Shown here one piece after another: positions 18,053 through 45,763 of a stretch of 64,000 bases of DNA. Origin of the DNA: a virus. Below the pieces are notes generated by a model. The model was not told the origin of the DNA. It saw nothing but the letters and a program-made list of their open reading frames with translations, and made no database searches. The number at the start of each line of letters is the position of its first letter. Positions within the stretch are counted from its first letter, which is position 1. The translations under genes and the position numbers were made by a program. Where the stretch lies: positions 15,655-79,654 of the IMG/VR virus record IMGVR_UViG_3300042303_000421; one strand, written 5' to 3'.

Positions 18053-18778
18053 ATGGCACATAATGGACAAATGATTGGTATGGGTGAAATCTTATGGAGA
18101 GTATTAAGACAACCTTTACTTAAAGATTTAAAATATGAAGAAGCAGCTGAATATGCTTTAGAATGTATTCCTTTATTAGGAGCACCTATGGCTTTAGTTG
18201 AAAAAGTTACAGATCCTATTCCAATAGAATCATTTAAATCACCACTACCTTGTGATTTAACACAAATTAGAGGAGTTAGATATTTAGGATTAGATGGTTG
18301 TCAAGATCCAATTGCTATGAGAGAAGCTACTAATTTATATCATAAAAGTCAAAATGAATTAAATAGTGAACTTGAATTAATTAGAGAATATACTTATTCA
18401 ATTCAAAATGGTATTATATTTACTTCTCGTGAAGAAGGTTTTATTGAAATTTCATATAGAGCAATTGCTACAGATGAAAATGAATTTCCTTTAATACCTA
18501 ATACTGAAAAAGTTAAATTAGCATTAGAATATTATATAATGTTTAGATATTTAGAACAATTATTTTCAGTAGGTAAAATAACTGATAAAGTATTTCAATA
18601 TTATGAACAAAAAAAATGTTGGTATATGGGAGCAGCTAATACTGATTTACAAATGCCTACAATAGATAAAATGGAATCTATGATGAATGCTATTAATAGA
18701 TTAATTATTAATGATAAAGCTCATGAATCATTTTATAAAAACTTTGGAATGAAAGAATATATAAAAGATAATAGATAA
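18053..18778 (+). CDS. Tail tubular (ring 1) protein
   Basis: LPCDL, G.I.ISY.AI.TDE..FPLIP, WYMGAA motifs. Confidence 0.8.
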   Translation: MAHNGQMIGMGEILWRVLRQPLLKDLKYEEAAEYALECIPLLGAPMALVEKVTDPIPIESFKSPLPCDLTQIRGVRYLGLDGCQDPIAMREATNLYHKSQNELNSELELIREYTYSIQNGIIFTSREEGFIEISYRAIATDENEFPLIPNTEKVKLALEYYIMFRYLEQLFSVGKITDKVFQYYEQKKCWYMGAANTDLQMPTIDKMESMMNAINRLIINDKAHESFYKNFGMKEYIKDNR

Positions 18779-30400: not shown

Positions 30401-32049
30401 AGGCTTTAGTAGACAATCAAGGTAGTTTTGAAGGTATAGAAGGTAAAGTAGATAAACAGTTCACAGGAGTGCTTAAAATAGGTGAGCAAGGTGGTAGTAT
30501 ATTAAATCTTGCAGTATTTGAAGGAATGACCGAAAAAGAAAAGATTAATTACTTTAAAAAGAATACCATATATGTAGGTAATAAAGGAATGGTTAAACAT
30601 ACGGCTACTGATTTACCAGTTCATAATTTAAATCTTAAAGCTAGAAGTAAAGGTGAAGTATTTTTACTTATACCTATGATTAATGGTGAAATGTTTCCTT
30701 TAAAATTAAACACTAATAAATTAAGTGATGAAAAAGCATCAGCTACATTAGATTTAATTATATTACGTTCAAGATTATTAAGTCAAAAACAAGATATGAC
30801 TTTTGATGAATTACAAGAGTATATTACTAATAATGATTTAGGAGCTATTCAAACTGAATTTGATTTTGTTAAACGTGAAGAAGATAATATTGATCAAACT
30901 TTAGAAAGACTTATTAACTTTATAGTATTTTCTCAAAATACAAATACTAAGACTAGATTAGAATTAAAACCTAATGGTGTTTTATTATTAGGAGAATTAC
31001 TTCATAAATTTAATGATAAATTACCTGCATTTGATGGAGATAAAGTAAAACATTATTATTATACTAATGAAATACTTGAAAGTTTATCTGGTGTACAAAG
31101 ACAATCATTAATTGATTATTTAAAATATAAAAGACATAATGTATTAATTACTAAAGATGGTAATGCTACATTTAATAATGATGCTTATATTAAATATTTA
31201 TTAGGAACTGAAACAGGTTATTCTGTTTTATCTACTAACGCAATAACTAATGAACCAACATTTCAAGGTTATTCAAATATTTATTTAAGTCAATCAGTTA
31301 CTAATAAAACAGAACCTAAAATTAAAAAAGCTGAAGATACTGATGATACACAAAGTCTTTTAGATAGTCTTAATTATGGTAATATTGTAGAAGAACCTAT
31401 AACTACTCAATCTGAAATAGAAGCTAAAAAAGCTGATATAGAAAGAAGATTAGGAATAAAATTACCTGTAAAAAACACTTCTCTACCTGTATCTTCTAAA
31501 ACATGGGGAGATAGAAAATCTCTTGCAAATCAATTATCTTCTGAATTAAAAGGAGTAGTTGAAAGAGGTGTATCTATGCAAGAATGGTTAGATAAAGGAT
31601 ATGGAAGACAATTAGCTACTTGGACAGACGAAACTATTATTGAGTTTTTAGAAGTAGCTGATATAGAAAAAAGAAGACAAGAAAAGTTAGAAGCTTATAA
31701 ATTAAAAAAAGACGGAACTCCTAAAAATGAAGCAGAATTAACCAAAGTATATGCAATAGATGATGTTAGAATTATCAATGCTAAATATGATGCAGAACTA
31801 AAAACATTAGAAACTCAAAATGTTCTTCCTACAGCTAATATTAATCAACCAGTATTAACTACTGAAAGTGAATTAGTTACCAAATTTAATAGTTTATCAG
31901 AAACTCAACAACTTGAAACAATTGAAACTTTAGCTGAAAAACTTAATAAACCTATTGATTCTTTAGTTGGTGAATCATTCATTGAAATGTTTAAAGAATT
32001 AACAAAAGGTGTAGAAAATAATAAAATTATAAAAATATGTGGATTTTAA
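27496..32049 (+). CDS. Large ejection/cargo protein 3 with predicted TM segments
   Basis: 1517 aa; hydrophobic Gly-rich segments, ESA.EA and SEG.WEEG.Q motifs; single Cys at residue 1515. Confidence 0.65.
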   Translation: MEKEKEFDPFKVLSKSTYDQKFTSPMSKTTESGSGDMYGYNVGLGSSKYDKNLSPTTSIEFNDFVDSLEDYRSKNQPWIDKAGAGLARVGLKVGVELAKMPGFIGGAIAAPFAEEGQGWETFVNNSWVKSLNNLNQKINNEYLPVYVKKAVAEGNLWANITSIDFWATDGADGIGYIVSMMAPGAILKGIGVGNKLAKLGANEKLLKVLNRADPLLSAQKGDVITATIANTMFESAAEAGNAMENFDKTKDTFIQSQLSKGLTAEEAEQTFTEQKARLGRDIFIANTAILMGPNALQSNMLWGRTVNKTATEVFDKKGTLLQNVINPQIYKKVSRRLGDIGKATISEGLWEEGMQMSVEHMFTNSAKKGQLTNNMFNDFNLGELGDAYLNTISSTEGLKAMFLGAFLGGGMQAFSGGKQDIRDRKATQSLLDVAHTSIDSYYKALTENVYNEDGSVNVTKARSKVAALKNLETLDEMYQNALAKGDFEVLEELRDIAGSQLAMGFIMNDKLGLEVLRKHLEESTQLEEVLQKEQELGNKVSKKDIVERVMSKATLMENALSNFQKFAPSLYNPTFKDESLTEEVKQQKTQEFRKVLAQNYLTNKVVKDIYNKKIKELEKDKAQILADLGYSSSVNLDLDNYTVDIEQANKVDKDVLETSDERLRKVTEDLKELKEEFQQVDKLDKLFWNKERIQKDFDKYNNQVKKDEKAVTPEKLEQYDSVLGEIAEIESIKELESYARNLKEEYQTNPVILDKLAEHKVALETALELKKAKEEADVIQEDEEQFEQDEVIGTTTVNTDTKSATDITIVTDLETLQNSETSEVEDTIEDPNNFLELKENTNPEFSDKNQSAARIISTYQDTGESIPGLESFVEYEKETRNKTNDKVTFSLGDLTQQKQDQLMSSILDKLKNDGTLNDKQIEMLENYLLIKVTLSNGTKSASSFIDSMSHPNPDIVTRETLPLRKAIIKALVDNQGSFEGIEGKVDKQFTGVLKIGEQGGSILNLAVFEGMTEKEKINYFKKNTIYVGNKGMVKHTATDLPVHNLNLKARSKGEVFLLIPMINGEMFPLKLNTNKLSDEKASATLDLIILRSRLLSQKQDMTFDELQEYITNNDLGAIQTEFDFVKREEDNIDQTLERLINFIVFSQNTNTKTRLELKPNGVLLLGELLHKFNDKLPAFDGDKVKHYYYTNEILESLSGVQRQSLIDYLKYKRHNVLITKDGNATFNNDAYIKYLLGTETGYSVLSTNAITNEPTFQGYSNIYLSQSVTNKTEPKIKKAEDTDDTQSLLDSLNYGNIVEEPITTQSEIEAKKADIERRLGIKLPVKNTSLPVSSKTWGDRKSLANQLSSELKGVVERGVSMQEWLDKGYGRQLATWTDETIIEFLEVADIEKRRQEKLEAYKLKKDGTPKNEAELTKVYAIDDVRIINAKYDAELKTLETQNVLPTANINQPVLTTESELVTKFNSLSETQQLETIETLAEKLNKPIDSLVGESFIEMFKELTKGVENNKIIKICGF

Positions 32050-32096: not shown

Positions 32097-35000
32097 ATGA
32101 AATGTAAAAGAATAGCTTACACAGGAAAAGCTGAATCAATATTATTTGATACTATTTATGATAAAATAGCAAATCAAAATGAAAAAGTAGCAGAAGAACT
32201 GTTTGCATATTTTGGTAAAGAATCATTTATTGAAGATTTTGGAGATTATCTTCAAGATTATAAAAATAATAAATATGATTCTAACAGAATTGATGAGAAT
32301 GGTGAACCTGCTTTATTTTATGATGACACAGCTAAAAAACATTATTATTTAAATAAAAATAATGAAAAAGTATATTTTCCTTTAGTTGATAGAGGTTTAC
32401 GTGCTATTTATAGTTATAAACAAATTGCTAAAATTAAATCAAGATTAGCTTTAAATTATTTTAAAAATTCTGGATTAGATTTTAATAATATTGAATTTAG
32501 TGAAGGTGAAAGTTTACCAAATTTAAGAAATTTTATTATTAAAGAAATTACAGATAAAGCTACAGAACTTAAAGAACAAGGTGGAGTGAGTTTACTTAAA
32601 GCACGAAGCCTTGAACGTTCTTTAAAATATGTTGATGAATTAGTTGAAAATGTAGAAAACTTTTTTAGAGAGTTATCTATTGAAATTATAGAAAATGAAG
32701 AAGATACTTCTTTTTTAGAAGAAGAAGGTAGAGATCCATCATTTAATCAACATTCTGCAGAAAGAAATACTAAAGATAATATTAGTGCTAATGTTAAACT
32801 TAGATTAAGTTTATTAGAAGACCCTAATACCTTAGATCCTATATGGAATGAACCTACTTTTTTAGATAGAGATATGGTTTATTCTACATTACAAAGTGTA
32901 TTGTCTAATGAAATTGCTTTACCTAGTGAAGATTTGTTTGAAAATTATAAAACATATTTAAGTAGAGTTCAAGATAAAAAACCATACTTAAAAGGATTAT
33001 TAGAATATTTAAATAAAGTTACATCTGAAAATCAAAAAAGTGAATTTGTTCAAGCATTTAATCTTATTAAAAATAATCATATAGTAACTCAATTTGAAAT
33101 TACTAAACGTGTTGTTAATGAAGAAACTGGTGAAACAGAAATGTTTGTAGAACATAGAAGTTTACCTATTTCAGATACAGGTTCTAAGATTACAGTAGTT
33201 AAAGATGCTTGGGATATTAATTTTCAAAATAATTTTTTAACTGCTGATAATACATTAAAAACAGGTTCAATTGAAAGATTGAATAAAGCTTCTAATGTAT
33301 TAAAACAATATTTTAAAGATAGTGAGTTATTAACAGAAGATAATGTAGAAGGATTTGAAATTTTAGCAAATAAATCAATTAAATTTTTAGAAACATTAGG
33401 TGTTAATTTAACTAAAGAGGGATTTGATAATTTTATAGACAATTTTGGTAAAGATATTACATTTAATGATAGATTAAAAAACTTAAAAACTTTAATTAAT
33501 CAAACAGAATATGTTGTAAATGGTATTAAAACTAAATATAGTTATAAATCAGAAGATTACTCTAGTTTTATAGGATTGTCTCAAACACTTACAAAGTTAG
33601 CTTCATCTGAAGCTTTCTTTTTAAATGAAGGTTCTGATGCTACAATTGTTACATCTTCTTCTACTGGTAAATCAAAACAAAAATGGATTTATTCATATCC
33701 TTCTTATGTATCAACAAAAGTTAAACAATGGAAAAAAAATCCTAAATTATTATTAGATTTGTATAAATCTGGTAATTATCAATTAGGTTCTTTCTATATG
33801 GGTGTTTTAACAGGTACTATTAATAATAAAGGTGAAAAATTAAATCTTGAAGAAAAAGATCAATTAGAACTATCTAAGAAGATTTTAGAAGGATTAGATG
33901 TTGCTATTATGAATCAAATGTCTTCTGATAGTGAGTACAAAGAAACTACCAATTTATCTTATAAAGATTATTTAGTAGATTATGTTAATAAAGTACTTAA
34001 AGAAGATGATTTTATTAGAACAACAACTCCTGCAGATAAAACAACAGAATTACAAATTAAAACAGGAATTAGATTAAATTCATTTAATGGTTTAAATCAA
34101 GATAAAAAAATTAATATTAGACCTAGAACATTAGACATATTTTTTAACTATTTTAGTTCAGAATATAATAGAATGTTAGAAGCTAATCAAGATGTTATTA
34201 ATGCTGAAACTAATCCTGAAAAATATAAATTAACACCTCATTATCATTATCAATATGAAATTAAAGATAAAAATGGTAATAAAATTATAAATCCAAATCC
34301 TTATGATAAAAGTGGTAATGCTTTCAAATCACAATATTTTGAAAAGTTGTCACCAAATTCAAAAGGTCAAACTAATTTAGAAGACCAAATTACTAATTTA
34401 TTATATGATAATAAAGGTAATTTTAACTTTCAGAAATTAACAAGAGAAAGTAGTGAAGAATTAAATAGTTTATTTAATCAATATATTACTACTAACTTAA
34501 GATCTCGTATTGAACAAACAATTAGTTATTTACAAGCTAATGAAGTATTTATTAGAAATAAAGAAGGTATAATTGTACCTAATAAAATAGATTCTAAAAT
34601 ATTAACAAGTGGAGCATATAGAAACGTATCAGCAGCTCAAAAAGCAATTGCGTTTGCTACTGACTTTATAATTAACGGTTTAGTTTCTAATGTTGAATAT
34701 TCTAAAATGTTTACAGGTGATGTAGCATTTTATAAGAATATGGTAGATTATAAAAAACGTGTACCTGCATCATATACTGATGGTTTGCAATTAAGAATAA
34801 CTCAAGGTAATGAATTTTTTAATATTGCTACTATTGAAAGTGTATATCGTAAATCACCTTTTTATGACTTACTTGTTGAAAGTTTAAGTGAAGAAGGAGC
34901 TAGACCTTATGAAAATATTAACTCTGCTGATGCTCAAGCATGGATTACACCTAAACGTTGGAAATTTTTAATTCAAGCATTAGGTAAATGGACTAAAGTT

Positions 35001-38000
35001 CATGATGAAGTTTATAAAAAAATGATTTCTAATAATATTGAACAATATACTGAAAAAGAATTAAAAGTTGCAGCACAACCTTTAAAAGGTGTGTATTTCT
35101 TTAGAGATAATAGTGGTAAACCTACATATCTTAAATATTCACAAGCAGTATTAACTAAATCATTAATACAAGATTCTGATTTAGAAAAAGTATTCAATCA
35201 GATGGAAGTTGATAATGTTGATGAATTGATTACTTTTGATGGTGTTAAAGTTGGAGCAATTGAACCAACTAAAATACATGATGAAAATGGTAATGTTGTT
35301 CAAGATATTAAATATAATGTACAAACACTATCTAATTATGGTTGGAAACTTCAACAAGATTTACCAACTAAAACATATAAAGATACTGATGTAGGTTCTC
35401 AGATTCAAAAAAATATATTTGCAGGATTATTACATTTACAAAACGATACTAATTTTGAATTAGATGGTCAATTAGTAAGTGGTAAATATGTTAAAGATGA
35501 AATTGTTAAAACTATTACAGGTTTAACTAATCAAGGTTTAGAATCTCTTAAAAAAGAATTTAAAATTGATGATGATTTTAGAATTGGAGATATTTCAGGA
35601 TTTTATAATGCATTAATTTCTGAATTACAAAAACGTGGTGGTTCTGAAAATGTTATTAAAGCATTACAATCAGAAGTTACAATTGTAGGTATTCCTCAAT
35701 CATCTGAAAAGTTATTTAATATGTTTGCTTCAATTATGAATAGTAGACTTGTTAAAATTAAAACTAATGGTGGTTCTTTTATTCAAATGAGTAACTTTGG
35801 TTTAAATAAATCTGAAGCTGATTCTAAAGGTGTTATATGGCATCCTGAAGCATTATCTACAGTACATGAACCACATATATATATTCATCCTGAAACATTA
35901 AGACCAACAGTAAGACCTGGTGGTGTTTTAATATCAGGAAGTTTTATAGCTAAATATATTCCTAATTGGAAAAGTTATGATGAAGTAGAATTATTTGTAG
36001 GTAAAGATGGTAAACCACCAATTATAGATAAAAAAATACAAGATAACATTATAGGTTATCGTATTCCTAATCAGGGTTTAGCTTCTAATGATGCTTTACA
36101 AATTGTAGGTATATTACCTGAAACATCTGGAGATACTATTGTAGCTTATACAGGTATTACTACTAAAACTGGTTCAGATTTTGACGTTGATAAAATGTAT
36201 ATAATGTTTCCATCTTATAATAAAAAAGACAAACAACTTATATATAAAGAAAATGATTTAGGTAACAGATTAATAGAATTATATAAATCTGTGTTAACAC
36301 ATCCTGAAGTTTATAAATCTGTAATGAAACCTATTGATATTGAATTTATTAAAAATGAAATTAATACTTTATTTCCAGAAACAGATTCTGTATTTATGAG
36401 TCATTTTGACCCAGAAGTAGATTTAAAACTTAGATATTATTTTTTAGGTGGTAAAGCTGGTGTTGGTCAAGAAGCTAATGCTTTAGTTGATATTAGTAGA
36501 GAAGGTAAACTTTCTTTAAATGATATTAAATATATAACTTGGGGTCATCATAACACTGAAGGTGAAAGTGCTTTTGATTTTGAATATTCTGAAGAATTAT
36601 CTGATAAAGACTTAGATTATTATGTTAAACAAATAGTTAAAAGTACTGCTACTCAAAAAGAAATTGATGAATTTAAAAATGAATTACGTAAAGTAAAAGT
36701 AGGTGATTCATTAACAGCAATTCTTAATGCGTTTGTGGATATTGCAAAAGACCCATATATATCTAAAGGTAACTGGACAACAGCTACAACTAATATAGGT
36801 AATCTTTTATTACGTATTGGTGCACATCCTTTATATGTTGTTAACTTTTTAGCTAATCCTGTAATTGCAGAATATATTGAGTATTTAAAATCTAAAGAAG
36901 GTATTACTAATACTGAAAAAGATTTAGGTTCATTAGATAGTTTTAAAAAGTTTAAAAAACATATTGTTAAAACAGCTTTAAATGCTTCTACACCTGAAAG
37001 TTCAAATACTTTATTGGGTAATTTATATTTAGATTATTATAAAAATTTTAATATTGATTGGCAAAAAGAAAAGCTTTCTCAAGATCTTAAAAATAATTTT
37101 GTAACTAAAGAACAATATGATAAAGAAATAATTAAATTAGATAATTCATTTAATACTTCAAAAACAAAAGTTAAAAAACTTTTAAAAGTTTCAGATGAAG
37201 AAATTACAAATATTATTAATTTAATGAATCAACAACATTCTAAAGTATTTTTACATGAAAAATATAGTGTATTTAATAAAGATAGATTTGATTTAGAATA
37301 TTTTAGAAATCAAGTAACTACAACTAAACCAGATTCTGAGTTTAGAATGAATATTTTAAATACTTTTAAAGAATTAAATGAGTTTAGTAAGAATGTTAGA
37401 GAAAATGTAATGGTTTCTAAACTAGATACTGATGGTATGGGTAAAGATCATAATAAATTATTCACAATATTTAATATGATACAAATTATTAATGATAAAG
37501 TTGAAAATAATGTACCAGGAGCTATTAAAGGCTTTAATAGTAAATTTGAAGGTACAACACTAGAAGCATATTATAATAGCTTAAAATGGGTTAAAAACGT
37601 TGTAGAAAGCAATCCTTTATTATTTCCTACAGGTACAATTCAAACTAGACAACAATTTAATGAAATTTCTCAAGATGTCTATAGTAGTTTATTAACTAAT
37701 GAAGAAATGAGTAATGATTTAAGTAGAGAATATAATTCTTATTTAATGGAACAATTCTTTAATATTACTAAAGAAGAAAAGTTAGATTTAATTGATAATT
37801 TACCTAATAGATTTAAAGAATTTAAAGAAGCTAATAAAGATAAGTATTTTATACTTGATGAATTAACATTAGATATTCCTAAAAGTAAAAAACGTAAAGC
37901 TATTATTTCTTTAACTAATAGAAAGAAATCTAAAGCATATGAAAAAATATTTACAGATTCTTGGAGAGATTTATTTATAGATAATCCTACATTAGCAGAA

Positions 38001-40079
38001 GATTTAGTTAAATATTCTTTTGTTACTTCAGGATTTAAAATGAATGCAACACAATTTTATACATACATACCATTTGAATATTTTGTTCAAAATCAAATTA
38101 ATAGTAAAGTTAATGATATTATAAATAATAACACATTTGACTTTTTAGATAAGTTTTACTTAAATAAATTAGAAAATAAAAAATATGTTAAAAAAGTATT
38201 TGATAATAATTTAAATTTAGCAATTGGTACTAATGTTGTTAAAAAAGACAATGGTTTTAAATTAGAAAAAGGTTCTAAGTATTATGTAGAATTAGAAGTT
38301 AAAATTCCAGATAATGCTCCTGCTGATTTTGTACCAAAACTTAAATATTATAAATTGGTTGGTTTTAATAAAAATGAAGACGGATTATATGTTAGAATTA
38401 ATAATACACCATTATCTTTAAATAAACGTAAATTAACAGACTATAGTGATAATATATTTGATGATGTTATTAATGAAGAAACACAATACATTAAATCACA
38501 AGTAATATTTGATAGAAATATGAATAAAATAAATGATATTGTTGATGATGTTATTGAAACTACAGAAGTTCAACCTCAAGTTCAACCTCAATCTAATAAA
38601 ATATTATTTAAAGAAGAACTAACATTAGGATATAAAAATAGAACTATTAAAAATGCTAGTGCAGATGCTACAATAGCAATAGCAATAGATTTTAATAGTG
38701 CTGGAGAAAGATTAACTAAATCATCTGTATTAAGTCAAAATAAAAAATATATTTCTTTAGATGCTAGTAATTTAACTGTTACACAAGAAAGAGTTGATAA
38801 AATAGTAGAACAATTAAACTCTGCTAAAGAATATACTTCTGAAAATATAACTTCTTTAAAACCAAATGAAGTATTTGTATTTGGTAGTAATGCAGAAGGA
38901 GTTCATGGAAAAGGTGCTGCATTATTAGCTAAAACTAATTTTGGAGCTAAACAAAGTCAATCAGAAGGATTACAAGGACAATCTTATGCAGTTATTACAA
39001 AGAAAAACTGGAGAGTTGAAAAATCTTCTACATTAGAAGAAATTGGTAAAGGACTACAAGATATGTTACTATTTGCTAAACAAAATCCAGACAAGAAATT
39101 TTTAGTTACTAAACTTGGTAGTTCATTAGCAGGATATTCAGTAGAAGAAATTAAAGAATTATTTGAGAAATTAAAAAATATTATTCCAAATAATGTTATT
39201 TTACCTAAAGAATATGAAATTAGAGGAATAACTTTAAATATTGCTGGTAATGGTATTTATACTATGAAAGGTAAATATACTCAGCAGCAAGTTGATGATT
39301 TTACATATAATTTATTAAAAGCTGTTATTGAATCTCCAAATCTTAAAACTAAAATAGAAAGTATTAGAAGTGGTGGTCAAACAGGTTTTGATGAAGCAGG
39401 TACAAAAGCAGGTATTAAATTAGGTTTACCAACATTAACTTTAGCTCCTAAAGGTTGGACTTTTAGAGATATAACAGGTAAAGATATTTCTAATGAACAA
39501 CAGTTTAAAGCTAGATTTGGTGAAGTAATTACTCAACAACCTCAATTAGTTGAAAATATTTATAATCAATTAGGAAATAAAACAGTTTCTAATAATGTAG
39601 AAATATTAGATTGGAAAGACTTAAAAGAATATGATGCACCAATTGAAAAAGATCTTGAAGGAAATTTAGAATTTATTATTTCTACCAGAATACCTAAAGT
39701 TTTTAATCATTTTGGAAATCCTTTTAGTCATGATCCAGCAGGTAAAACTCAAGGATTAATTAAAACAGAAACTATAAAAGAAGCTGTTGAAAAATATATT
39801 GATTGGGTTATTAATTCAAAAGATGATAGAGCTGAATGGATTAGAAAACAAATTCAATCAGGTAAATTAAAAGGTCTACCTATTTTGTACTATAAAGAAT
39901 TAAATCAACCTTCTCACGCTACAGCTTTAGATTATTTAATAAATAAACATAATTGGAATATTGAAACAAATAATCAACCATCTCAATTATCTTTATTTCC
40001 AGAATTATCTGAACAAGAATTTAATAACTTAACTGAAGAAGAACGAGCTACAATTTTGTGGCAAAAAAATAATTGTTAA
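32097..40079 (+). CDS. Virion-packaged DNA-dependent RNA polymerase (two-barrel, phi14:2 gp66-like) with C-terminal accessory domains
   Basis: 2660 aa; catalytic GSDFDVDKM (36177-36191), YRIPNQG, DAQAWIT, QPLKG, KYS, VDIAKDP. Confidence 0.93.
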   Translation: MKCKRIAYTGKAESILFDTIYDKIANQNEKVAEELFAYFGKESFIEDFGDYLQDYKNNKYDSNRIDENGEPALFYDDTAKKHYYLNKNNEKVYFPLVDRGLRAIYSYKQIAKIKSRLALNYFKNSGLDFNNIEFSEGESLPNLRNFIIKEITDKATELKEQGGVSLLKARSLERSLKYVDELVENVENFFRELSIEIIENEEDTSFLEEEGRDPSFNQHSAERNTKDNISANVKLRLSLLEDPNTLDPIWNEPTFLDRDMVYSTLQSVLSNEIALPSEDLFENYKTYLSRVQDKKPYLKGLLEYLNKVTSENQKSEFVQAFNLIKNNHIVTQFEITKRVVNEETGETEMFVEHRSLPISDTGSKITVVKDAWDINFQNNFLTADNTLKTGSIERLNKASNVLKQYFKDSELLTEDNVEGFEILANKSIKFLETLGVNLTKEGFDNFIDNFGKDITFNDRLKNLKTLINQTEYVVNGIKTKYSYKSEDYSSFIGLSQTLTKLASSEAFFLNEGSDATIVTSSSTGKSKQKWIYSYPSYVSTKVKQWKKNPKLLLDLYKSGNYQLGSFYMGVLTGTINNKGEKLNLEEKDQLELSKKILEGLDVAIMNQMSSDSEYKETTNLSYKDYLVDYVNKVLKEDDFIRTTTPADKTTELQIKTGIRLNSFNGLNQDKKINIRPRTLDIFFNYFSSEYNRMLEANQDVINAETNPEKYKLTPHYHYQYEIKDKNGNKIINPNPYDKSGNAFKSQYFEKLSPNSKGQTNLEDQITNLLYDNKGNFNFQKLTRESSEELNSLFNQYITTNLRSRIEQTISYLQANEVFIRNKEGIIVPNKIDSKILTSGAYRNVSAAQKAIAFATDFIINGLVSNVEYSKMFTGDVAFYKNMVDYKKRVPASYTDGLQLRITQGNEFFNIATIESVYRKSPFYDLLVESLSEEGARPYENINSADAQAWITPKRWKFLIQALGKWTKVHDEVYKKMISNNIEQYTEKELKVAAQPLKGVYFFRDNSGKPTYLKYSQAVLTKSLIQDSDLEKVFNQMEVDNVDELITFDGVKVGAIEPTKIHDENGNVVQDIKYNVQTLSNYGWKLQQDLPTKTYKDTDVGSQIQKNIFAGLLHLQNDTNFELDGQLVSGKYVKDEIVKTITGLTNQGLESLKKEFKIDDDFRIGDISGFYNALISELQKRGGSENVIKALQSEVTIVGIPQSSEKLFNMFASIMNSRLVKIKTNGGSFIQMSNFGLNKSEADSKGVIWHPEALSTVHEPHIYIHPETLRPTVRPGGVLISGSFIAKYIPNWKSYDEVELFVGKDGKPPIIDKKIQDNIIGYRIPNQGLASNDALQIVGILPETSGDTIVAYTGITTKTGSDFDVDKMYIMFPSYNKKDKQLIYKENDLGNRLIELYKSVLTHPEVYKSVMKPIDIEFIKNEINTLFPETDSVFMSHFDPEVDLKLRYYFLGGKAGVGQEANALVDISREGKLSLNDIKYITWGHHNTEGESAFDFEYSEELSDKDLDYYVKQIVKSTATQKEIDEFKNELRKVKVGDSLTAILNAFVDIAKDPYISKGNWTTATTNIGNLLLRIGAHPLYVVNFLANPVIAEYIEYLKSKEGITNTEKDLGSLDSFKKFKKHIVKTALNASTPESSNTLLGNLYLDYYKNFNIDWQKEKLSQDLKNNFVTKEQYDKEIIKLDNSFNTSKTKVKKLLKVSDEEITNIINLMNQQHSKVFLHEKYSVFNKDRFDLEYFRNQVTTTKPDSEFRMNILNTFKELNEFSKNVRENVMVSKLDTDGMGKDHNKLFTIFNMIQIINDKVENNVPGAIKGFNSKFEGTTLEAYYNSLKWVKNVVESNPLLFPTGTIQTRQQFNEISQDVYSSLLTNEEMSNDLSREYNSYLMEQFFNITKEEKLDLIDNLPNRFKEFKEANKDKYFILDELTLDIPKSKKRKAIISLTNRKKSKAYEKIFTDSWRDLFIDNPTLAEDLVKYSFVTSGFKMNATQFYTYIPFEYFVQNQINSKVNDIINNNTFDFLDKFYLNKLENKKYVKKVFDNNLNLAIGTNVVKKDNGFKLEKGSKYYVELEVKIPDNAPADFVPKLKYYKLVGFNKNEDGLYVRINNTPLSLNKRKLTDYSDNIFDDVINEETQYIKSQVIFDRNMNKINDIVDDVIETTEVQPQVQPQSNKILFKEELTLGYKNRTIKNASADATIAIAIDFNSAGERLTKSSVLSQNKKYISLDASNLTVTQERVDKIVEQLNSAKEYTSENITSLKPNEVFVFGSNAEGVHGKGAALLAKTNFGAKQSQSEGLQGQSYAVITKKNWRVEKSSTLEEIGKGLQDMLLFAKQNPDKKFLVTKLGSSLAGYSVEEIKELFEKLKNIIPNNVILPKEYEIRGITLNIAGNGIYTMKGKYTQQQVDDFTYNLLKAVIESPNLKTKIESIRSGGQTGFDEAGTKAGIKLGLPTLTLAPKGWTFRDITGKDISNEQQFKARFGEVITQQPQLVENIYNQLGNKTVSNNVEILDWKDLKEYDAPIEKDLEGNLEFIISTRIPKVFNHFGNPFSHDPAGKTQGLIKTETIKEAVEKYIDWVINSKDDRAEWIRKQIQSGKLKGLPILYYKELNQPSHATALDYLINKHNWNIETNNQPSQLSLFPELSEQEFNNLTEEERATILWQKNNC

Positions 40080-40080
40080 T

Positions 40081-43000
40081 ATGAATTGTATAAACATAAA
40101 CGACTCAAAGTATAAAGAGTTATTAGAACAAACAAAATTAAATCCATTAATCCTGAAGGCTAGAATTTCTATCTTTCAGGATAAAAATGGTTTAGAATCA
40201 TTTCCTAAATTAGAAGATGTTATTCAATCTAATGAAGTTAATCAAAGTTTAAAATCTGTTGATATATTATCTTCTGATAAAGCAAAACAAATTTTTGAAA
40301 AAGGTAAAAAGTCTAATTGGGATTTAAATAAAATTTTAACAGAGCTGCAGATCCCTAAAGATCAAAAACAATTAATATTGGATTTAGATAAAACTAATAG
40401 AGAAGAAATCATTACAGACCTATTAGCTAAATATAGTTATACTATTGAGATTAATACTGCTAAAGAACAAATTAAAACTGGTACAAAAAAAGTTCAAGGT
40501 TCTCCTATTAAGTATTATTCAAAATCTGAAAATAGATATTATAGAGATACTGAAGAATTAGGATGGATTAGTTCTGATGAAAATAATAAAAATCAAGAAG
40601 TAGATGTTCAAACACCAGAAGATTTAGAACCAATTGAATTTGATACTTATAATATTGATACTTTTTCAGAATTAGAAACTAAACATTACTCTAACCTAAC
40701 AGTTCCAGGTGGTACTAATTATACAGAAAATGAAATATCTACTCCATTAATTACACCTAGTATTAAAGGTCATGCTCAATTTAGTACTGATAAAGGTATA
40801 GGTTGGTTTAGAAGTGACGAGCAGCAATCTAATAATGACTTAGAAGAACAAAGAGAAGAAGAAGAATATCAGATAGCTAATAATCCAAACTATGTAAAAG
40901 GAAGTATTCAATTTGAAAAGGGAGAGGGCTCTAAAACTCGTAGAATACTAGAAGTACAATCAGATTTATTTCAGAAGGGTAGAGATAAAGATTATTTGCC
41001 TAAATATCCTTTTAAAAGCAATGATAATAAATTTCTTCAACTTCTAAACAAAGATAATAATTGGGTAACATTCTTTGTTAAATCTATTATACAAGATAGT
41101 GTTAAGAAAGGATATGAAAAAATATTATTTCCTTCTGGTAATACAGCTAGTAAAGTGGAAGGTCATACTACTTTAGAAGAGTTTAAGAAACAGAAAGAAG
41201 ATAGGTTAAAAGAGCTTGAGGATAAAGTTAATAAAGGTAGATATGTACTTACTGATAATACTGGGTTTCCAATGGGTATAGCTCCAATAGATTCTGACAT
41301 CAATGTATTAAAAAGTAATAATCCAACATTAAAAATTGAAAAAGAGTCTTTGACGCAAAAAGAATTAGATGATACAAATAATGAAATAAACCAACTTAAA
41401 CAAGAACTTGAAAGAGTAGAAGGACCAGAAGGATTTGGTGCATTAAAACCTATCTATAACTTCTATGAGAACACTGTAAAGAATGTTCTTAATAAACAAT
41501 ATGGTAAAGAAAATGTAAAACAAGTTACTGATGAATATGGTAATACTTGGAATGAATTAACTTTAGAAGAAAGTAGAGATACTTCAACTATTTTATTTAA
41601 TAAAAAAGATTTAAATGATTTTGTTGGAGATAATTCAAAACCTTTTTTTCCAGAAAGTACAACAAATCAACCTCAAGTAAATAATAGATTTCAAATAAAT
41701 AAAGAATTATTATTTAATGATAAAAATATTAATAATTCTTTTAAAGCTAAAGATGTATTACAAAATATAATTAATTCTAATTTAGAATTTTCAGATGCTG
41801 GTAATAATTTAGTATTTAAAGCAATGAATGTTTTAAATCGTTCTAATAGTAGAGTTAAAGTTATTAGTCAAGAACAATTTGATAAAATGACTGAAAATTC
41901 TGAAGGGAACGGAACTGCTGTAATGGCTTATGAATCAGAATTAAATGTTATTTATACGACAGAAAATTCTTTAAGTATTTTTACAAAAGAACAAATATTA
42001 GAATCATTTTTACATGAAGTTGCTCACAATTTAAGTATTAAAGCAATTATTAATCCTGTAACTTTTGAAGAAATACAATTTAATGAATTAATTAAAAAAG
42101 CATTTGAACAATATAAATATTTAGGTAAAAATTTAAAAGGTTCCAAAAGCTATGGTTTTACAAATGAAAAAGAATTTGTAGCAGAATTATATTCTAATGA
42201 AGAATTTCAAAATGAAATTAAATCATTAGATAAAAACTTTTGGCAACAATTTAAAGACGCTATTAGAAGATTATTTGGATTAACTAAATCATTACAAAAT
42301 AATGAATTAATTAATAGTATTTTATTAATTGAAAATGTTGAAAAATTTATTGAAACTAGTCAACAATCTTTAGACGGTTTAGCTAGAAATGATTATTCAA
42401 ACTCTTTTAATAACATAATGTTTAAAAAAATAGAACAACCTAAAGAAATTGAATTAGATACTTTAGATAAACAATTAAATTATACTATTGAAAAAGCGTT
42501 AGATAAAATTGATGCAATTATTCGTAGAACCAAAAAATCTAAAAATTCTAAAAACAAACAAGATAATGAAGCTTTTGTAAAATCTTTTACTGAATTATTT
42601 AAAGAAATTGAAACTTTAGAAAATACTAATAAATGGCAAGCTGTTAATGCATACGTTACTTCATTTTCAAAAACAGTATTTCATTTAAATCAAATGTTAA
42701 AAACTAAATTATATAATAAAGATACTGAAACATTTAATAAAGATATAAGTTCTGAAGAAATGTTAGACTTATCTTATAGATATGAAGAATATCTTACTGC
42801 GTATGATTTATTAGAAGATATTAAAAAGTTATTACAAACAAGTGAAACTGATGAATTTGTTACTAAACAAAATCAGATAGAAATAAATAAAATTAAAGAT
42901 ATTTTAGCTAATTTAACTAAAGATCATAATAGTTTAACTGGAATAATATTAAATATTAAAAAAGCACATGCTGTAAAAATGATGTCTGAAGCTGATTTAA

Positions 43001-45606
43001 ATACAGAAGTTGTTGCTAAATGGAGAAATAAATTATTTCAAGAACATACTGATTTAAAAATTACAAATGAAACCAAAGAAGCTTATTTTGGTAGAATGAT
43101 TGAAGGTAAATATAAAGATGAATATAATAAAGCTTTAGTTGCTAATGCTCGTAAAATAGTTAATGATCCATCTTTTGATATTGAAAGTGTTACTCGTTCT
43201 GTTGTAGATATTTTAAACACCAATTCACCATTATTAAACATGATGTCTAATGTAATTGGTAAAATGAGAGATTCTATTATTTCCGCAGCAAGAACTAAAA
43301 ATTTTGAAATAGATAAAGTTTATAAAAAATATTCTGCTGAAAAAGGTCAAAATAAACAATCTCAAATGTATAAAAATCTTGTAGAATTATCTAAATCAGA
43401 TGATAGATATTATTTACATGGAGAATATTCTACAACATATTTAGATTCATTTAATAGTTTACAACCTGTATTTAAAGCACGTAAAGAGTTAGTAGCTTTA
43501 AAATTAGCAGAAGGTTTAACTAATTCACAAATTAAAAAATTACCTGAGTATAAACTTTTAAATAAACAAATAGCAAATTGGTTTAAAGCAAACACTATTA
43601 AAGTTGATGGTATTACTTATCCAAATCCTAAATATAAAAATAAAGAATTAACAGGTATTGAAAAAGAAACATTAGATTATTTTATTTATGAAACTGAAAA
43701 AAATGATGATTCTTATAATGGTACAGCATCTTTAATAACTTTAATACCTGGAGCTACATTTTATAAATTACCTTCAGTTACTAAAAGTGATTTAGAACGT
43801 ACATTAGAAGGTGATATTAAAGGTCAGTTTGTAGATAAATGGAAAGATTTAAATGAAGTACGTGTTGATGATGTTAGTTATGGTGAAGCAATTAATAATA
43901 AAAATGAAGAATTACGTACTGTAAGAGTTCATTATAGAGGTAAAATAGAATCTAAAAATCAATCATTAGATTTATTTACAGTTTATCGTAAAGAAGCTTT
44001 TAATGCAATTAATTATGCTGAAAAGAAAGAAAATGAATATAAACTTAAATTGTTTGTAGATATTGCTTCTAGTAAACAATATAAGAAACGTTCAAAATCA
44101 GGAGGATGGGCTCAAAATGTATTTGCAACTAAACAACCAGGTGTTATTGTAGAAGGTGAATTTAGTGAAGAATTAAAACGTATTAAAGGTTTACTTGAAA
44201 GTACTGCTTATGATATTTTATCATATAATGGACAAAAAGTATTAGGTACTAATATTGAAGCAAATAAATTATCATCATTAATTAATGGTACAGCAGCAAG
44301 TATTGCAATGACAATGAACTTAGGTTCTGGTGTAGTCAACGTAATGAACGGTGTTACACAAATGTTTATTGAATCTGTTGGTGGTAGAAATTTTAAAAAA
44401 GCAGATTTATTAAAAGCTGAAGCTAATTATAGTAAAAACTTAATGAATATTTTAGCTGATTTAAATGAACCTGTTAAAAAATCATTTCATAATCAAATGT
44501 TAGAAATGTTTGATGTATTTGGAGGTTTTGATGTTTCTACTCAAGAATTTTTAAGAAATTCATATGCTAAGAAATTAATTTCCAAACAACAAATGAATAT
44601 GTTAAATGAAATGGGTGAACATATGATGAACTCAGTTTTAACAGAAGTTATGTTAAGAGGAATTAAAGTAATGAATGAACAGCGTCAATTTATTGATAAA
44701 TCAGGAAATGTTGTAGAAGAATCAAAAGCTGCTTCATTATTTGATATGTTATCTTTAAATAAAGATGGTGTTTTAGAAATGGATAGTAAAGTTGTTTATA
44801 CTCTTAAAAATTTAGATTCTAAATATCATGAAAGTGGTAAATATCATATTAATTATGTTATTAAGAAAAAAGCTCATGATATATTTGGTGTTTATGATCC
44901 ATTAATGAAAGCTGAAATAGCTAAACATTGGTGGGGTAAAACAGTTTTAATGTTTAAGAACTTCTTTTTATCAGGACTTAAATACAGATATCAAGGTATT
45001 AGTAAATCTTTAAAGAAAAAAGAAGATTTAACTGATGATGATATAGTATTTAATAACGCTGAACAGGAGTTCACAGAAGGTACTTATGTTACTTTTATTA
45101 GATTTGTACGTAATGTTGTTTTTCCTGCATTAAAAGGGCTACAATTAGCTCATATGAGTGATGGTTATAATAAGTTAACAGACTATGAAAAAGCTAATTT
45201 AAGAAAAACTACATTAGAAGTAGGTTTAACTATGGTATTGTTACCGATGTTAGGTTACTTATTAGCATCTCTTGGTGGAGATGATGATGATAAACCATAT
45301 TTTGCATTATATGTATTTAGAAGATTAGAGTCAGAACTTTCACAATATAGAAATCCTATAGAGTTAAATAGAATGATTCAAAATCCTGTAGCAGCTAATA
45401 GATTTATTCAAAATTCATTAAATGCTTTAGGTGAAATAATTACACCACTTAATTTTAATCCTGGAAATAATGAATATTTGTTTGATTATTTAAGTGAAGA
45501 TTCTAAAGGTAAAAATAAAGTAGTTAAATCTATTAAGAAAATTACACCATTTTATGCTCAATTTCAAAAACCATATAGAGAAATGCATAATCTTATAAAT
45601 AAATAA
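40081..45606 (+). CDS. Large ejection/cargo protein with zincin metallopeptidase and polyvalent-type domain
   Basis: 1841 aa; LHEVAH...EFVAE zincin; PGG.NY.E...WFR.D...EVQSD domain; C-terminal hydrophobic segment. Confidence 0.75.
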   Translation: MNCININDSKYKELLEQTKLNPLILKARISIFQDKNGLESFPKLEDVIQSNEVNQSLKSVDILSSDKAKQIFEKGKKSNWDLNKILTELQIPKDQKQLILDLDKTNREEIITDLLAKYSYTIEINTAKEQIKTGTKKVQGSPIKYYSKSENRYYRDTEELGWISSDENNKNQEVDVQTPEDLEPIEFDTYNIDTFSELETKHYSNLTVPGGTNYTENEISTPLITPSIKGHAQFSTDKGIGWFRSDEQQSNNDLEEQREEEEYQIANNPNYVKGSIQFEKGEGSKTRRILEVQSDLFQKGRDKDYLPKYPFKSNDNKFLQLLNKDNNWVTFFVKSIIQDSVKKGYEKILFPSGNTASKVEGHTTLEEFKKQKEDRLKELEDKVNKGRYVLTDNTGFPMGIAPIDSDINVLKSNNPTLKIEKESLTQKELDDTNNEINQLKQELERVEGPEGFGALKPIYNFYENTVKNVLNKQYGKENVKQVTDEYGNTWNELTLEESRDTSTILFNKKDLNDFVGDNSKPFFPESTTNQPQVNNRFQINKELLFNDKNINNSFKAKDVLQNIINSNLEFSDAGNNLVFKAMNVLNRSNSRVKVISQEQFDKMTENSEGNGTAVMAYESELNVIYTTENSLSIFTKEQILESFLHEVAHNLSIKAIINPVTFEEIQFNELIKKAFEQYKYLGKNLKGSKSYGFTNEKEFVAELYSNEEFQNEIKSLDKNFWQQFKDAIRRLFGLTKSLQNNELINSILLIENVEKFIETSQQSLDGLARNDYSNSFNNIMFKKIEQPKEIELDTLDKQLNYTIEKALDKIDAIIRRTKKSKNSKNKQDNEAFVKSFTELFKEIETLENTNKWQAVNAYVTSFSKTVFHLNQMLKTKLYNKDTETFNKDISSEEMLDLSYRYEEYLTAYDLLEDIKKLLQTSETDEFVTKQNQIEINKIKDILANLTKDHNSLTGIILNIKKAHAVKMMSEADLNTEVVAKWRNKLFQEHTDLKITNETKEAYFGRMIEGKYKDEYNKALVANARKIVNDPSFDIESVTRSVVDILNTNSPLLNMMSNVIGKMRDSIISAARTKNFEIDKVYKKYSAEKGQNKQSQMYKNLVELSKSDDRYYLHGEYSTTYLDSFNSLQPVFKARKELVALKLAEGLTNSQIKKLPEYKLLNKQIANWFKANTIKVDGITYPNPKYKNKELTGIEKETLDYFIYETEKNDDSYNGTASLITLIPGATFYKLPSVTKSDLERTLEGDIKGQFVDKWKDLNEVRVDDVSYGEAINNKNEELRTVRVHYRGKIESKNQSLDLFTVYRKEAFNAINYAEKKENEYKLKLFVDIASSKQYKKRSKSGGWAQNVFATKQPGVIVEGEFSEELKRIKGLLESTAYDILSYNGQKVLGTNIEANKLSSLINGTAASIAMTMNLGSGVVNVMNGVTQMFIESVGGRNFKKADLLKAEANYSKNLMNILADLNEPVKKSFHNQMLEMFDVFGGFDVSTQEFLRNSYAKKLISKQQMNMLNEMGEHMMNSVLTEVMLRGIKVMNEQRQFIDKSGNVVEESKAASLFDMLSLNKDGVLEMDSKVVYTLKNLDSKYHESGKYHINYVIKKKAHDIFGVYDPLMKAEIAKHWWGKTVLMFKNFFLSGLKYRYQGISKSLKKKEDLTDDDIVFNNAEQEFTEGTYVTFIRFVRNVVFPALKGLQLAHMSDGYNKLTDYEKANLRKTTLEVGLTMVLLPMLGYLLASLGGDDDDKPYFALYVFRRLESELSQYRNPIELNRMIQNPVAANRFIQNSLNALGEIITPLNFNPGNNEYLFDYLSEDSKGKNKVVKSIKKITPFYAQFQKPYREMHNLINK

Positions 45607-45613
45607 AAGGTCT

Positions 45614-45659
45614 AAAAAAACCCTACTACGACTCGTTTGAGTTATAGTAGGGTTTTTTT
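45614..45659. terminator. Bidirectional intrinsic terminator between convergent gene blocks
   Basis: A7-CCCTACTACGACTC-GTTT-GAGTTATAGTAGGG-T7. Confidence 0.88.
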
Positions 45660-45663
45660 GTTT

Positions 45664-45762
45664 TTAATTATGACATGAACAATTACATGTTTCAGGATGA
45701 CAATTTCCACTGTTACATCTATGACAAGTATATGGACTGTTTATCATATCTTTTCTTTTCAT
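45664..45762 (-). CDS. 32-aa Cys/His-rich peptide (not in ORF track)
   Basis: MKRKDMINSPYTCHRCNSGNCHPETCNCSCHN*; starts 1 nt after upstream stop and ends at terminator. Confidence 0.65.
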   Translation of the reverse strand: MKRKDMINSPYTCHRCNSGNCHPETCNCSCHN

Positions 45763-45763
45763 A

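Follow-up and report, generated by a model that had tools for sequence, protein, structure and literature searches.

A nested SLOG-macrodomain and DUF4326-like cassette on the virion RNA polymerase of a marine crAss-like phage, a probable counter-defence payload

Introduction

The RNA polymerase gp66 of phage phi14:2 and its homologues in crAss001 are virion cargo (bioRxiv 10.1101/2020.03.07.982082; PMC10172136). gp66 is active in vitro and in vivo, and its active site has an inactive conformation in the crystal (bioRxiv 10.1101/2020.03.07.982082). Very large virion-delivered multidomain proteins with conflict-related enzymatic domains, which vary between relatives, are known as polyvalent proteins (Iyer et al., 2017; PMC5512222). 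Viral fusions of SLOG, Macro, NADAR and DUF4326 domains have been predicted to counteract, at an early stage, immune signals that are diffusible and derived from ADPr, and the packaging of such domains in virions was considered in the same survey, which terms them 'typically standalone' (Iyer et al., 2022; PMC9503650). PhiKZ AdfM, a DarG2-like macrodomain, defeats DarTG2 (PMC13309987), and orphan NADAR antitoxins counter DarTG1 (PMC11825919). ORF83 is a free-standing, LOG-like phage protein of the SLOG superfamily with an experimental anti-Avs phenotype, and its homologues in amoeba viruses are SLOG-DUF4326 fusions (bioRxiv 10.1101/2025.06.06.658234).

The window, i.e., the whole stretch of 64,000 nucleotides that was analysed (positions 15,655 to 79,654 of IMG/VR record IMGVR_UViG_3300042303_000421), is from a marine crAss-like phage. 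It encodes a polymerase of the gp66 type with the same set of domains as in the 2022 survey at its C-terminal end; however, in the searched text of that survey, there is no mention of such domains fused to a virion RNA polymerase or of the nesting of one domain in another. The locus also resembles the polyvalent proteins, but here a Crassvirales protein, the two-barrel virion RNA polymerase, is the carrier, and the description of those proteins makes no mention of SLOG, YpsA, crAss or DUF4326 (PMC5512222). In contrast to ORF83, its SLOG domain is a YpsA-clade copy inside a phage polymerase. The idea of a cassette of this kind matches the published concepts of polyvalent proteins and of viral ADPr networks.

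Results

The polymerase and its gene block

The polymerase gene has the following features:

32097..40079, + strand: virion RNA polymerase ORF, 2660 aa
32097..38546, + strand: virion RNA polymerase body, residues 1-2150, from the phmmer match to PDB 6vr4
36177-36191, + strand: catalytic DFDVD motif in the polymerase body, residues 1361-1365, from the sequence

The ORF matches phi14:2 gp66 (PDB 6vr4) with an E value of 1.2e-207 in phmmer, the best stretch being 2-1378. The alignment ends at about residue 2057 of the ORF and residue 2044 of the 2194-residue 6vr4 chain. The homologous body of ~2050 residues spans both double-psi beta-barrel regions and contains the DxDxD catalytic motif, which is also located at 1361-1365 in gp66, and both proteins have a Cys3 and a C-terminal Cys. 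They are encoded in the same gene block. The order of the genes around the polymerase is that of crAss001 gp44-gp50, placing it within the crassvirus cargo gene block, and a muzzle protein (PF25731, E 6e-220) and cargo protein 1 (PF25725) are encoded upstream. By this homology, the ORF belongs to the crassvirus virion RNA polymerases typified by phi14:2 gp66. However, gp66 stops ~150 residues past its last alignable body segment and has no SLOG, macro or DUF4326-like domain, so that the last ~500 residues of the 2660-aa ORF are missing in it. No match to positions 30000-46000 was found among GenBank phages with megablast. The base composition at 38-40 kb is the same as that of the flanks and, thus, there is no sign of a recent import of this segment.

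Layout of the cassette

Behind the polymerase body, the original prediction had recognized four motif blocks, (a) to (d), which are indeed all in frame in the ORF at the places where they had been put. They include YKNRT (starting at 38631), ENITSLKPNEVF (38841), LNIAGNG (39234), IRSGGQTGFDEAG (39363), PKGW (39447), FGNPFS (39711), EAVEKY (39780) and SHATAL (39912). The domains to which they belong are arranged as follows:

38556..38600, + strand: Q/P-rich linker (VQPQVQPQS) joining the passenger block to the polymerase body, from the sequence; model 1 has a pLDDT of ~62 in its first 10 residues
38601..38825, + strand: SLOG part a with three strand-helix units, residues 2169-2243, from the cpYpsA profile and the AF2 model
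38826..39224, + strand: inserted macrodomain b, residues 2244-2376, of the A1S_2505 or 'N4 gp14-like' family, from NF049995 and a fold match
39225..39521, + strand: SLOG part c, which contains the Gly-rich loop RSGGQTGFDEAG, residues 2377-2475, from the cpYpsA profile and the AF2 model
39537..39965, + strand: putative divergent DUF4326-like domain d, residues 2481-2623, with HFGNPFS and PSHATALDYLIN, from AF2, BFVD and ESM; these limits exceed the 39690-39950 of the original prediction
39969..40076, + strand: conserved C-terminal tail, residues 2625-2660, two short helices, from the sequence and its relatives
39984-39998, + strand: QLSLF motif in the tail, from the sequence

The resemblance of the motif blocks to known families is judged to be far above chance, since b scores 121 bits against NF049995 and a and c match separate parts of cpYpsA. 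With the 502-aa passenger region, 5036 cluster representatives were retrieved at E<=1e-3 among 1.8 billion proteins, whilst a phmmer search of PDB sequences gave nothing meaningful. The cassette alignment that was folded (A4) had been inspected by eye; two others were discarded because SLOG part c fell on the macrodomain columns (A2) or unrelated inserts were forced onto these columns (A3). As Foldseek against the PDB gave mostly low-TM TIM-barrel and SRP-GTPase rows for the nested two-domain model, its fold matches were taken from VIA-align instead.

A permuted and interrupted SLOG domain

Parts a and c had been proposed to form a single, permuted SLOG domain. In agreement with this proposal, part a matches positions 46-114 of the Pfam cpYpsA profile (PF12694) and part c, which follows it, positions 1-32; thus, when compared with the Pfam model, the phage copy has its elements in a circularly permuted order. 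The score was 27.6 bits on a 559-aa piece, against a gathering threshold of 26.2, and 24.1 bits on the whole protein. Relatives score 32-40 bits, and PF12694 is annotated on most giant relatives. A match to phrog_10774 also covers both parts. In the AF2 model, with pLDDT values of 93-98 in part a and 94-98 in part c, a fold match to 3imk_A bridges the insert (VIA-align Z 8.3, close to that program's own background range of 7-8; rmsd 3.1 A, 107 residues aligned, 23% identity, model range 8..254). The domain shares with cpYpsA the Rossmannoid fold and the conserved GGQTGxDE nucleotide loop, and the residues of the Gly-rich loop RSGGQTGFDEAG are invariant across four polymerase homologues. Profile and model together identify a and c as one SLOG domain of the YpsA clade, which differs from cpYpsA also in being split by a domain of 133 residues. 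An insert of any kind is absent from 158 of the 175 related SLOG copies.

A macrodomain inside the SLOG domain

Part b had been described as an in-frame, Macro-like insert of the A1S_2505 family, and it amply passes the cut-off of the corresponding profile, NCBIfam NF049995 (121.2 bits versus 45), over profile positions 1-109 of 109. It also matches phrog_2072 (E 2e-30), and its only match in a defence library, PADLOC, is DarG (E 7e-6). DarG is also the one defence-related profile matched in NCBIfam, though weakly (25.7 bits versus a cut-off of 250), none of the Pfam Macro families is listed even at E<=10, and the profile of the macro family itself found TARG1 in the PDB at E 0.3 only. In VIA-align, b superimposed best on the DarG macrodomain 5m3i, over 125 residues with an rmsd of 2.6 A and Z 11.8, followed by such matches as 2lgr (Z 10.3) and 7omu (Z 10.1), and among the 27 chains with Z>=8, ranks 1-24 are all macrodomain entries except for one designed protein. 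Combining profile and model, b is identified as a DarG/TARG1-like macrodomain that sits in the SLOG loop after the third helix.

The Gly-rich phosphate loops are well conserved, with G2268, G2273 and G2341 invariant and G2346 present in 47 of 48 family members. Asp125 of TARG1 aligns with a position that is Ala in 46 of the 48. K2309 is located one residue off the position aligned with K84 of TARG1 and is kept in 26/48 members. Since the catalytic residues of TARG1 are not family-invariant in b, this macrodomain may bind rather than hydrolyse its ligand. b resembles DarG, TARG1 and PhiKZ AdfM (PMC13309987), its nearest folds, in its phosphate loops, but shares only ~20% sequence identity with them.

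A divergent DUF4326-like domain

The suggested resemblance of d to DUF4326 is in line with its fold neighbours and ESM clusters, but the Pfam score remains below threshold (PF14216: 13 bits versus a cut-off of 25, E 0.17). Among 28 relatives of d, nine matched PF14216 at E<=1, all sub-threshold with 0.006 as the best value, and it was the only family matched repeatedly; across the 79.7-kb source virus record, PF14216 gave no match. In a Foldseek search of BFVD with d, modelled with a pLDDT of ~95, roughly half of the 33 best rows bear the name DUF4326, and no row reaches E<=0.001; K4RI33 is the best so named (probability 1.00, E 0.012, TM 0.37/0.48). The nearest ESM clusters carry DUF4326 as well (scores 0.90 and 0.88). 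No PDB fold matched d (best Z 2.9 in VIA-align, E>0.6 in Foldseek), nor did any GenBank phage in tblastn. Thus, d is a putative, divergent DUF4326-like domain, assigned below threshold.

Variation of the payload among relatives

Related loci were found with an alignment as the query, whereas none was found with a single sequence. The C-termini of the polymerases vary. In the closest full-length relatives (P0021, P0089), the body is followed by a SLOG domain without interruption and by the tail. Other polymerases end in d (P0206, L026, L029, L046), in b (P0193), in NADAR and DUF7831 (L004, L005), in DUF7831 (L015, L034) or in an SF1 helicase (L011, L014, L020), and some have no add-on. Because the add-on differs among relatives, the cassette is a passenger that does not belong to the polymerase fold. 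gp66, which is active and has been crystallised, lacks it, and relatives have other modules in its place; hence, it is neither invariant nor needed for folding. The passenger domains are also seen on giant non-polymerase proteins, and ART-PolyVal, AlkB, zeta-toxin kinase, NADAR and helicase domains occur on giant relatives. Nesting takes several forms, with macro, NADAR or DUF4326-like domains within SLOG, and macro or SLOG within a DUF4326-like domain.

Free-standing genes for the macrodomain are present on long contigs and are real. Apparently free-standing SLOG or d proteins were rejected, as these are short matches on ~1-kb contigs with the same Cys tail at their end and, thus, probably pieces of giant proteins.

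Discussion

Function of the cassette

The explanation that we favour, and consider fairly probable as a whole, is that a polymerase of the gp66 type carries the ~500-residue cassette of SLOG, nested macrodomain and DUF4326-like domain into the cell, where it acts on NAD-derived immune molecules. The cassette would have been gained between the polymerase body and the conserved, Cys-ended tail. Packaged in the virion, the polymerase would be ejected into the cell before or with the DNA and, thus, the cassette would be inside the host prior to the expression of any phage gene. There, it would bind or degrade NAD-derived molecules of host immunity: the macrodomain might strip ADP-ribose off DarT-type modified DNA or ADPr conjugates, the SLOG domain might bind or cleave cADPR-like signals, and the DUF4326-like domain might trim a terminal phosphate. 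Early action is suggested by the b family, which N4-like phages encode in their early region ('N4 gp14-like'). On the grounds of homology and context, the cassette probably serves to blunt host immunity at entry.

Alternatively, the cassette could assist transcription or RNA chemistry, e.g., by removing NAD/ADPr-type 5' caps or clearing ADPr-phosphate from RNA repair on or near nascent early transcripts. The tethering of the passenger domains to an RNA polymerase and the SF1 helicase, with its nucleic-acid function, at the same site in relatives would suit such a role, and Macro, DUF4326 and related domains have also been tied to the processing of RNA-repair by-products (PMC9503650). However, gp66 is active in vitro and in vivo without any cassette (bioRxiv 10.1101/2020.03.07.982082), the payload is highly variable, and its domains are found on giant non-polymerase proteins and as free genes as well, all of which makes this role unlikely. 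The inactive conformation in the gp66 crystal (bioRxiv 10.1101/2020.03.07.982082) could also bring to mind an auto-inhibited virion polymerase that is switched by SLOG and macro domains acting as non-catalytic sensors of an NAD-derived ligand. Many such domains sense ligands, ThsA for example (PMC11204291), with 8v6q being among the fold matches, and the TARG1-type catalytic residues are variable in b. Yet, most relatives, including gp66, have no cassette or unrelated modules, which argues against a general regulatory device of the polymerase and renders this option quite improbable.

The cassette might also have a mainly physical role in the virion, in packing, spacing or the order of ejection, its chemistry being irrelevant or decayed. 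Its location between the body and a terminal tail resembling a packaging or linkage signal, and its flexible, Q/P-rich linkers, would be compatible with this role. However, the passenger domains are 55-75% identical to copies carried by many unrelated giant proteins, and they have kept their Gly-rich ligand loops and family-invariant polar residues: b has N2265, H2270 and T2301, SLOG the GGQTGxDE loop, and d the motifs GNPF and PSHAT. Since this conservation indicates selection on function, a mainly physical role is very doubtful.

If the cassette is indeed an injected counter-defence payload, an abundant order of phages would have, in its virion RNA polymerase, a vehicle delivering exchangeable anti-immunity enzymes, and SLOG, macro, NADAR, DUF4326-like, DUF7831 and helicase domains would constitute a set of candidate immediate-early counter-defence modules. 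The repeated nesting shows that small ADPr-type domains tolerate mutual insertion, which is useful in structural work and engineering.

Terminal cysteines of the cargo proteins

The polymerase and the cargo proteins encoded on either side of it contain only four Cys in 6018 residues, each at most three residues from a terminus:

32038..32040, + strand: Cys1515, the third-last residue and sole Cys of the upstream 1517-aa cargo protein (ORF 27496..32049)
32103..32105, + strand: Cys3 of the polymerase, one of just two in 2660 aa
40074-40076, + strand: Cys2660 of the polymerase
40087..40089, + strand: Cys3, the sole Cys of the downstream 1841-aa cargo protein (ORF 40081..45606)

The 1517-aa and 1841-aa proteins have no match in Pfam or PHROGs, and the zincin that had been suspected in them was not confirmed. 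Along the three proteins, Cys is found at the C-end, at both the N-end and the C-end, and at the N-end, respectively, a pattern kept in ~60 relatives and in phi14:2 and crAss001. In homologues of the upstream protein, Cys is restricted to the last 8 residues in 32/33 cases; Cys3 of the polymerase is invariant in four full-length homologues, and Cys is found at both ends, within 8 residues of each, in 52 of 56 related polymerases; all 61 homologues of the downstream protein carry Cys among their 8 N-terminal residues but lack it among the 8 C-terminal ones. The Cys of the tail is one of the last 6 residues in 180/257 relatives. Where two cargo proteins are fused, the pair of Cys at the junction is lost.

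The restriction of Cys to the termini and the loss of the junction pair upon fusion suggest a head-to-tail disulfide chain. In the virion, two intermolecular disulfides, each from a C-end Cys to the N-end Cys of the next protein, would covalently connect the upstream protein, the polymerase and the downstream protein and set their order of ejection, and the chain would come apart in the reducing cytoplasm of the host. Passengers would be allowed only when they lack Cys and follow the polymerase body but precede the Cys tail. The QLSLF-type motif, present in the tail of a subset, could dock the freed polymerase on the host sliding clamp. Taken together, this is a tentative reading, a little less likely to be right than wrong. 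If correct, the terminal-cysteine rule would offer a testable handle on a question posed by the crAss001 structure, namely, in which way cargo protein of several megadaltons is put in order and passes through the tail.

Cys is found at a loop position of b in none of the 27 embedded copies versus 60 of the 108 free-standing b proteins. Embedded copies thus obey the rule of the cargo proteins against internal Cys, which argues that the cassette is translated as part of the cargo. Among 65 polymerases, 10 of the 11 QLSLF-type matches lie in the last 60 residues.

Genome setting and polymerase body

The IMG/VR virus record that contains the window is 79.7 kb long and low in G+C. PHROGs identified a major head protein in the window, which also contains the following genes:

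18778..22851, crassvirus muzzle protein (Pfam, E 6e-220)
23961..25637, cargo protein 1 (Pfam)
27496..32049, upstream giant ORF, 1517 aa, after the cargo genes
32097..40079, + strand, middle giant ORF, 2660 aa, virion RNA polymerase, homologue of gp66
40081..45606, downstream giant ORF, 1841 aa

The 2660-aa protein matches (E 1.2e-207) gp66, the crystallised virion RNA polymerase of Cellulophaga phage phi14:2 (PDB 6vr4), which carries a DFDID motif (bioRxiv 10.1101/2020.03.07.982082). The window polymerase has DFDVD at the identical position (residues 1361-1365). The alignment ends at approximately residue 2057 of the window protein and residue 2044 of the 2194-residue gp66 chain. Since gp66 stops ~150 residues past this point, the last ~500 residues of the window polymerase are extra. 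They comprise the first part of a SLOG domain (a), a macrodomain (b), the second SLOG part (c), a DUF4326-like domain (d), and a tail. All motif strings reported for this block in the original prediction were recovered, in frame and in place.

A SLOG domain interrupted by a macrodomain

Segments a and c had been proposed to form one SLOG domain with a permuted order of its elements, and both sequence and fold agree with this proposal. The Pfam cpYpsA model matches in two stretches, i.e., residues 2172-2239 with profile positions 46-114 and residues ~2424-2455 with positions 1-32. With a 559-aa piece as query, the score was 27.6 bits, above the cut-off of 26.2; with the entire protein, it was 24.1 bits. 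In phrog_10774, a and c form a single family with the insert left out, and a precomputed PF12694 label is present on >100 giant relatives. Residues 2159-2480 were modelled with AlphaFold2 from a hand-checked alignment (A4), with a mean pLDDT of 92.3 and a pTM of 0.85. In VIA-align, model residues 8..254 matched residues 49-157 of 3imk, a solved 'molybdenum carrier'/cpYpsA protein, in an alignment that bridges the insert (Z 8.3, close to the tool background of Z 7-8; rmsd 3.1 A; 107 residues; 23% identity). Thus, the two-stretch Pfam match, phrog_10774 and the 3imk match show that a and c constitute one Rossmannoid SLOG domain, whose elements stand in a circular permutation of the Pfam order. 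The SLOG loop RSGGQTGFDEAG does not vary across four full-length polymerase homologues.

The assignment of b to the A1S_2505 family of macro-like domains was confirmed. NCBIfam NF049995 matched over the entire model with 121 bits (cut-off 45); other sequence signals were limited to weak DarG matches in NCBIfam and PADLOC, and the Pfam Macro models gave no match. In VIA-align, ranks 1-24 were occupied by 23 macrodomain entries and, at rank 8, a de novo designed protein. Mycobacterium tuberculosis DarG came out on top, with Z 11.8 and 22% identity (rmsd 2.6 A over 125 residues). Human TARG1/C6orf130 (Z 10.3) and Thermosipho DarTG (Z 10.1) were also among the top matches. Among 48 members of the b family, there is little or no variation in the two Gly-rich loops and at N2265, H2270, and T2301. 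A Lys adjoining the position of TARG1 K84 is present in only 26 of the 48 members, and Ala is found at the position aligned to TARG1 Asp125. Fold and ligand site of b look intact; its catalytic mechanism cannot be read off.

The b family is large, with 1390 free-standing proteins of 74-237 aa. It is found in 431 GenBank phage records, where many N4-like phages have it as their 'N4 gp14-like' gene in the early region. It is also present in other giant proteins of crassviruses, including gut crassviruses, at different positions: close to the N-terminus of a crAss001-type 'putative RNA polymerase' in cr112_1 (L002:2126-2491), ~350 aa from the end of a giant protein in Kolpuevirus (L001:9001-9378), and, in cr50_1 (H2), within a protein that bears a DNA helicase annotation.

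The DUF4326-like domain

The resemblance of d to DUF4326 was supported at a sub-threshold level; formal membership of the family is not established. The AlphaFold2 model of d has a mean pLDDT of 89.6 (core ~95). Among solved structures, Foldseek gave no match at E<=0.001 (best E 0.67) and VIA-align no counterpart (best Z 2.9, to NADAR proteins). Of the top 33 rows in BFVD, approximately half carry the name 'DUF4326 domain-containing protein'; these proteins belong to phages, giant viruses, and haloarchaeal viruses. The best match so named had probability 1.00, E 0.012, and TM 0.37/0.48, with no row at E<=0.001. DUF4326 is the only Pfam family that recurs among 28 relatives (nine matches, best E 0.006, all below the cut-off), and the nearest ESM-Atlas clusters bear it as well. 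We regard d as a divergent representative of the DUF4326-like clade. No match to d was found among 50,697 GenBank phage records.

Nesting and exchange of domains

That b is an in-frame insertion into the SLOG domain is evident from the retrieved relatives, in which 158 SLOG copies are uninterrupted and 17 carry an insert of 120-305 residues, always at one point, after the third helix. The insert is b in P0123, P0125, and P0205 (in P0123 together with a NADAR domain, recognised by eye only from its motif in alignment A1), d in P0011, NADAR in P0159, and a domain of ~133 residues without family assignment in eight proteins. Reverse nesting occurs too, with b (P0113, P0182) or SLOG (P0124) located within d. 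Small ADPr-type domains are thus nested mutually in many combinations (P0011, P0113, P0123, P0124, P0159, P0182). Since the closest full-length polymerases, P0021 (47% identity) and P0089 (45%), consist of body, plain SLOG, and tail, the window gene differs from them by two extra in-frame domains, b inside the SLOG domain and d between SLOG and tail.

With an alignment as query, homologous polymerases were retrieved from 79 IMG/VR loci, and the sequence after the body varies between them. The following C-termini were found, besides sequence without family assignment:

Short tail only: e.g., L043, identical to 6vr4 over the tested residues (100 N-terminal and 150 C-terminal)
d: L026, L042, L029, L046; in protein searches, P0206
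NADAR and DUF7831: L004, L005
DUF7831: L015, L034
SF1 helicase: L011, L014, L020
b: P0193 (protein searches)

Because relatives differ after the body, the region is not an invariant part required for folding of the polymerase. The uncharacterised DUF7831 (PF25176), often located at the polymerase C-terminus (L004:16340-17485, L015:16328-17479, L034:16232-17317), once accompanies NADAR, is labelled on many giant relatives, and is a candidate further member of the payload set.

In L071 and L078, N-terminal modules of the 1841-aa downstream protein (window 40081-41700) precede the polymerase body as a fusion; evidently, modules are shuffled among cargo proteins. The downstream protein had no match in Pfam or PHROGs, and a zincin noted there earlier was not confirmed. 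Passenger modules are flanked by short Q/P-rich linkers with low pLDDT in the models, i.e., VQPQVQPQS (38556-38594), TQQPQL (39522-39545), and NNQPSQ (39969-39986).

The pentapeptide QLSLF (window 39984-39998) lies in a disordered stretch before the terminal helices of the polymerase tail. QLSLF is the canonical bacterial sliding-clamp-binding pentapeptide. It is the clamp-binding motif of Bacillus subtilis PolC (PMC12309361). In 65 related polymerases, Q[LVIM][SDTE][LIM]F matched 11 times, ten of them within the last 60 residues, and QL[SD]LF-like motifs, present in 10 of the 65, are confined to this region.

A possible role in counter-defence

The concept of polyvalent proteins delivered by the virion has been published (PMC5512222), as has that of viral SLOG/Macro/NADAR/DUF4326 cassettes, of which some are packaged in virions (PMC9503650). 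In the literature searched, neither a crassvirus virion RNA polymerase as carrier of such domains nor systematic nesting of SLOG/macro/DUF4326-type domains was found. The antitoxin domains of DarG1 and DarG2 are NADAR and macro, respectively, and phages carry orphan forms of either domain that defeat DarTG (PMC11825919, PMC13309987). For domains of this kind, action on ADP-ribose marks or on immune signals derived from NAD has been proposed in general (PMC9503650), and gp66 and its crAss001 homologues are packaged and ejected (PMC10172136).

The analyses show which domains the passenger block contains, how they are nested, and that they vary among relatives. If the window polymerase is packaged and ejected like gp66 and the crAss001 proteins, the block would reach the cytoplasm ahead of any phage gene expression, where it could, by analogy, target ADP-ribose marks or NAD-derived signals of host immunity. 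We consider such early counter-defence somewhat probable. Alternatively, the block might process the RNA products of the polymerase itself, serve as its ligand sensor, or have a purely physical role. Each of the three fits worse with the variability of the block and the conserved ligand-site residues than does counter-defence.

Terminal cysteines of the giant proteins

The three giant proteins contain only four Cys in 6018 residues, as compared with 0.70% Cys in the window proteins overall. They are located as follows:

32038-32040, Cys1515 of the upstream protein (1517 aa), third from the end
32103-32105 and 40074-40076, Cys3 and Cys2660 (last residue) of the polymerase (2660 aa)
40087-40089, Cys3 of the downstream protein (1841 aa)

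Distinct IMG/VR relatives (loci L004-L082) display the same pattern. Polymerases have Cys in both the first and the last eight residues in 52 of 56 cases (seven internal Cys in 138,518 residues), upstream proteins at the C-end only in 32 of 33 (three in 53,710), and downstream proteins at the N-end only in 61 of 61 (six in 86,506). Phage phi14:2 gp66 itself starts with MAC and ends with ECK. Phage crAss001 (L083) obeys the rule despite having the genes on opposite strands: gp47 has a single Cys at -3, gp50, which bears DFDVD, has Cys5, Cys -9, and one internal Cys, and gp49 has a single Cys at position 5. In natural fusions, precisely the junction pair is missing. The 3525-aa fusions of polymerase and downstream protein (L035, L038, L068) retain Cys7 alone. 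In L077, the polymerase makes up part of the C-terminal half of a 4641-aa protein that retains Cys -2 alone; the N-terminal half of this protein has no detectable similarity to the window upstream protein. A loop Cys of the macrodomain is found in 0 of 27 embedded copies, which have Ser there, vs. 60 of 108 free-standing ones (Fisher p 2e-8). The simplest reading of these patterns is that the giant cargo proteins may be linked head-to-tail by disulfides in the extracellular virion and become reduced in the host. Neither the terminal-Cys rule nor a head-to-tail disulfide chain was found in the literature searched.

In L008, L027, L032, and L062, the polymerase ORF is broken at or adjoining the catalytic GSDxD motif, ending in ...TGSDKR or ...GSDFD, a pattern suggestive of an intron, an intein, or a different kind of interruption at the active site. 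The N-terminal parts of these split polymerases have the N-terminal Cys only and the C-terminal parts the C-terminal Cys only.
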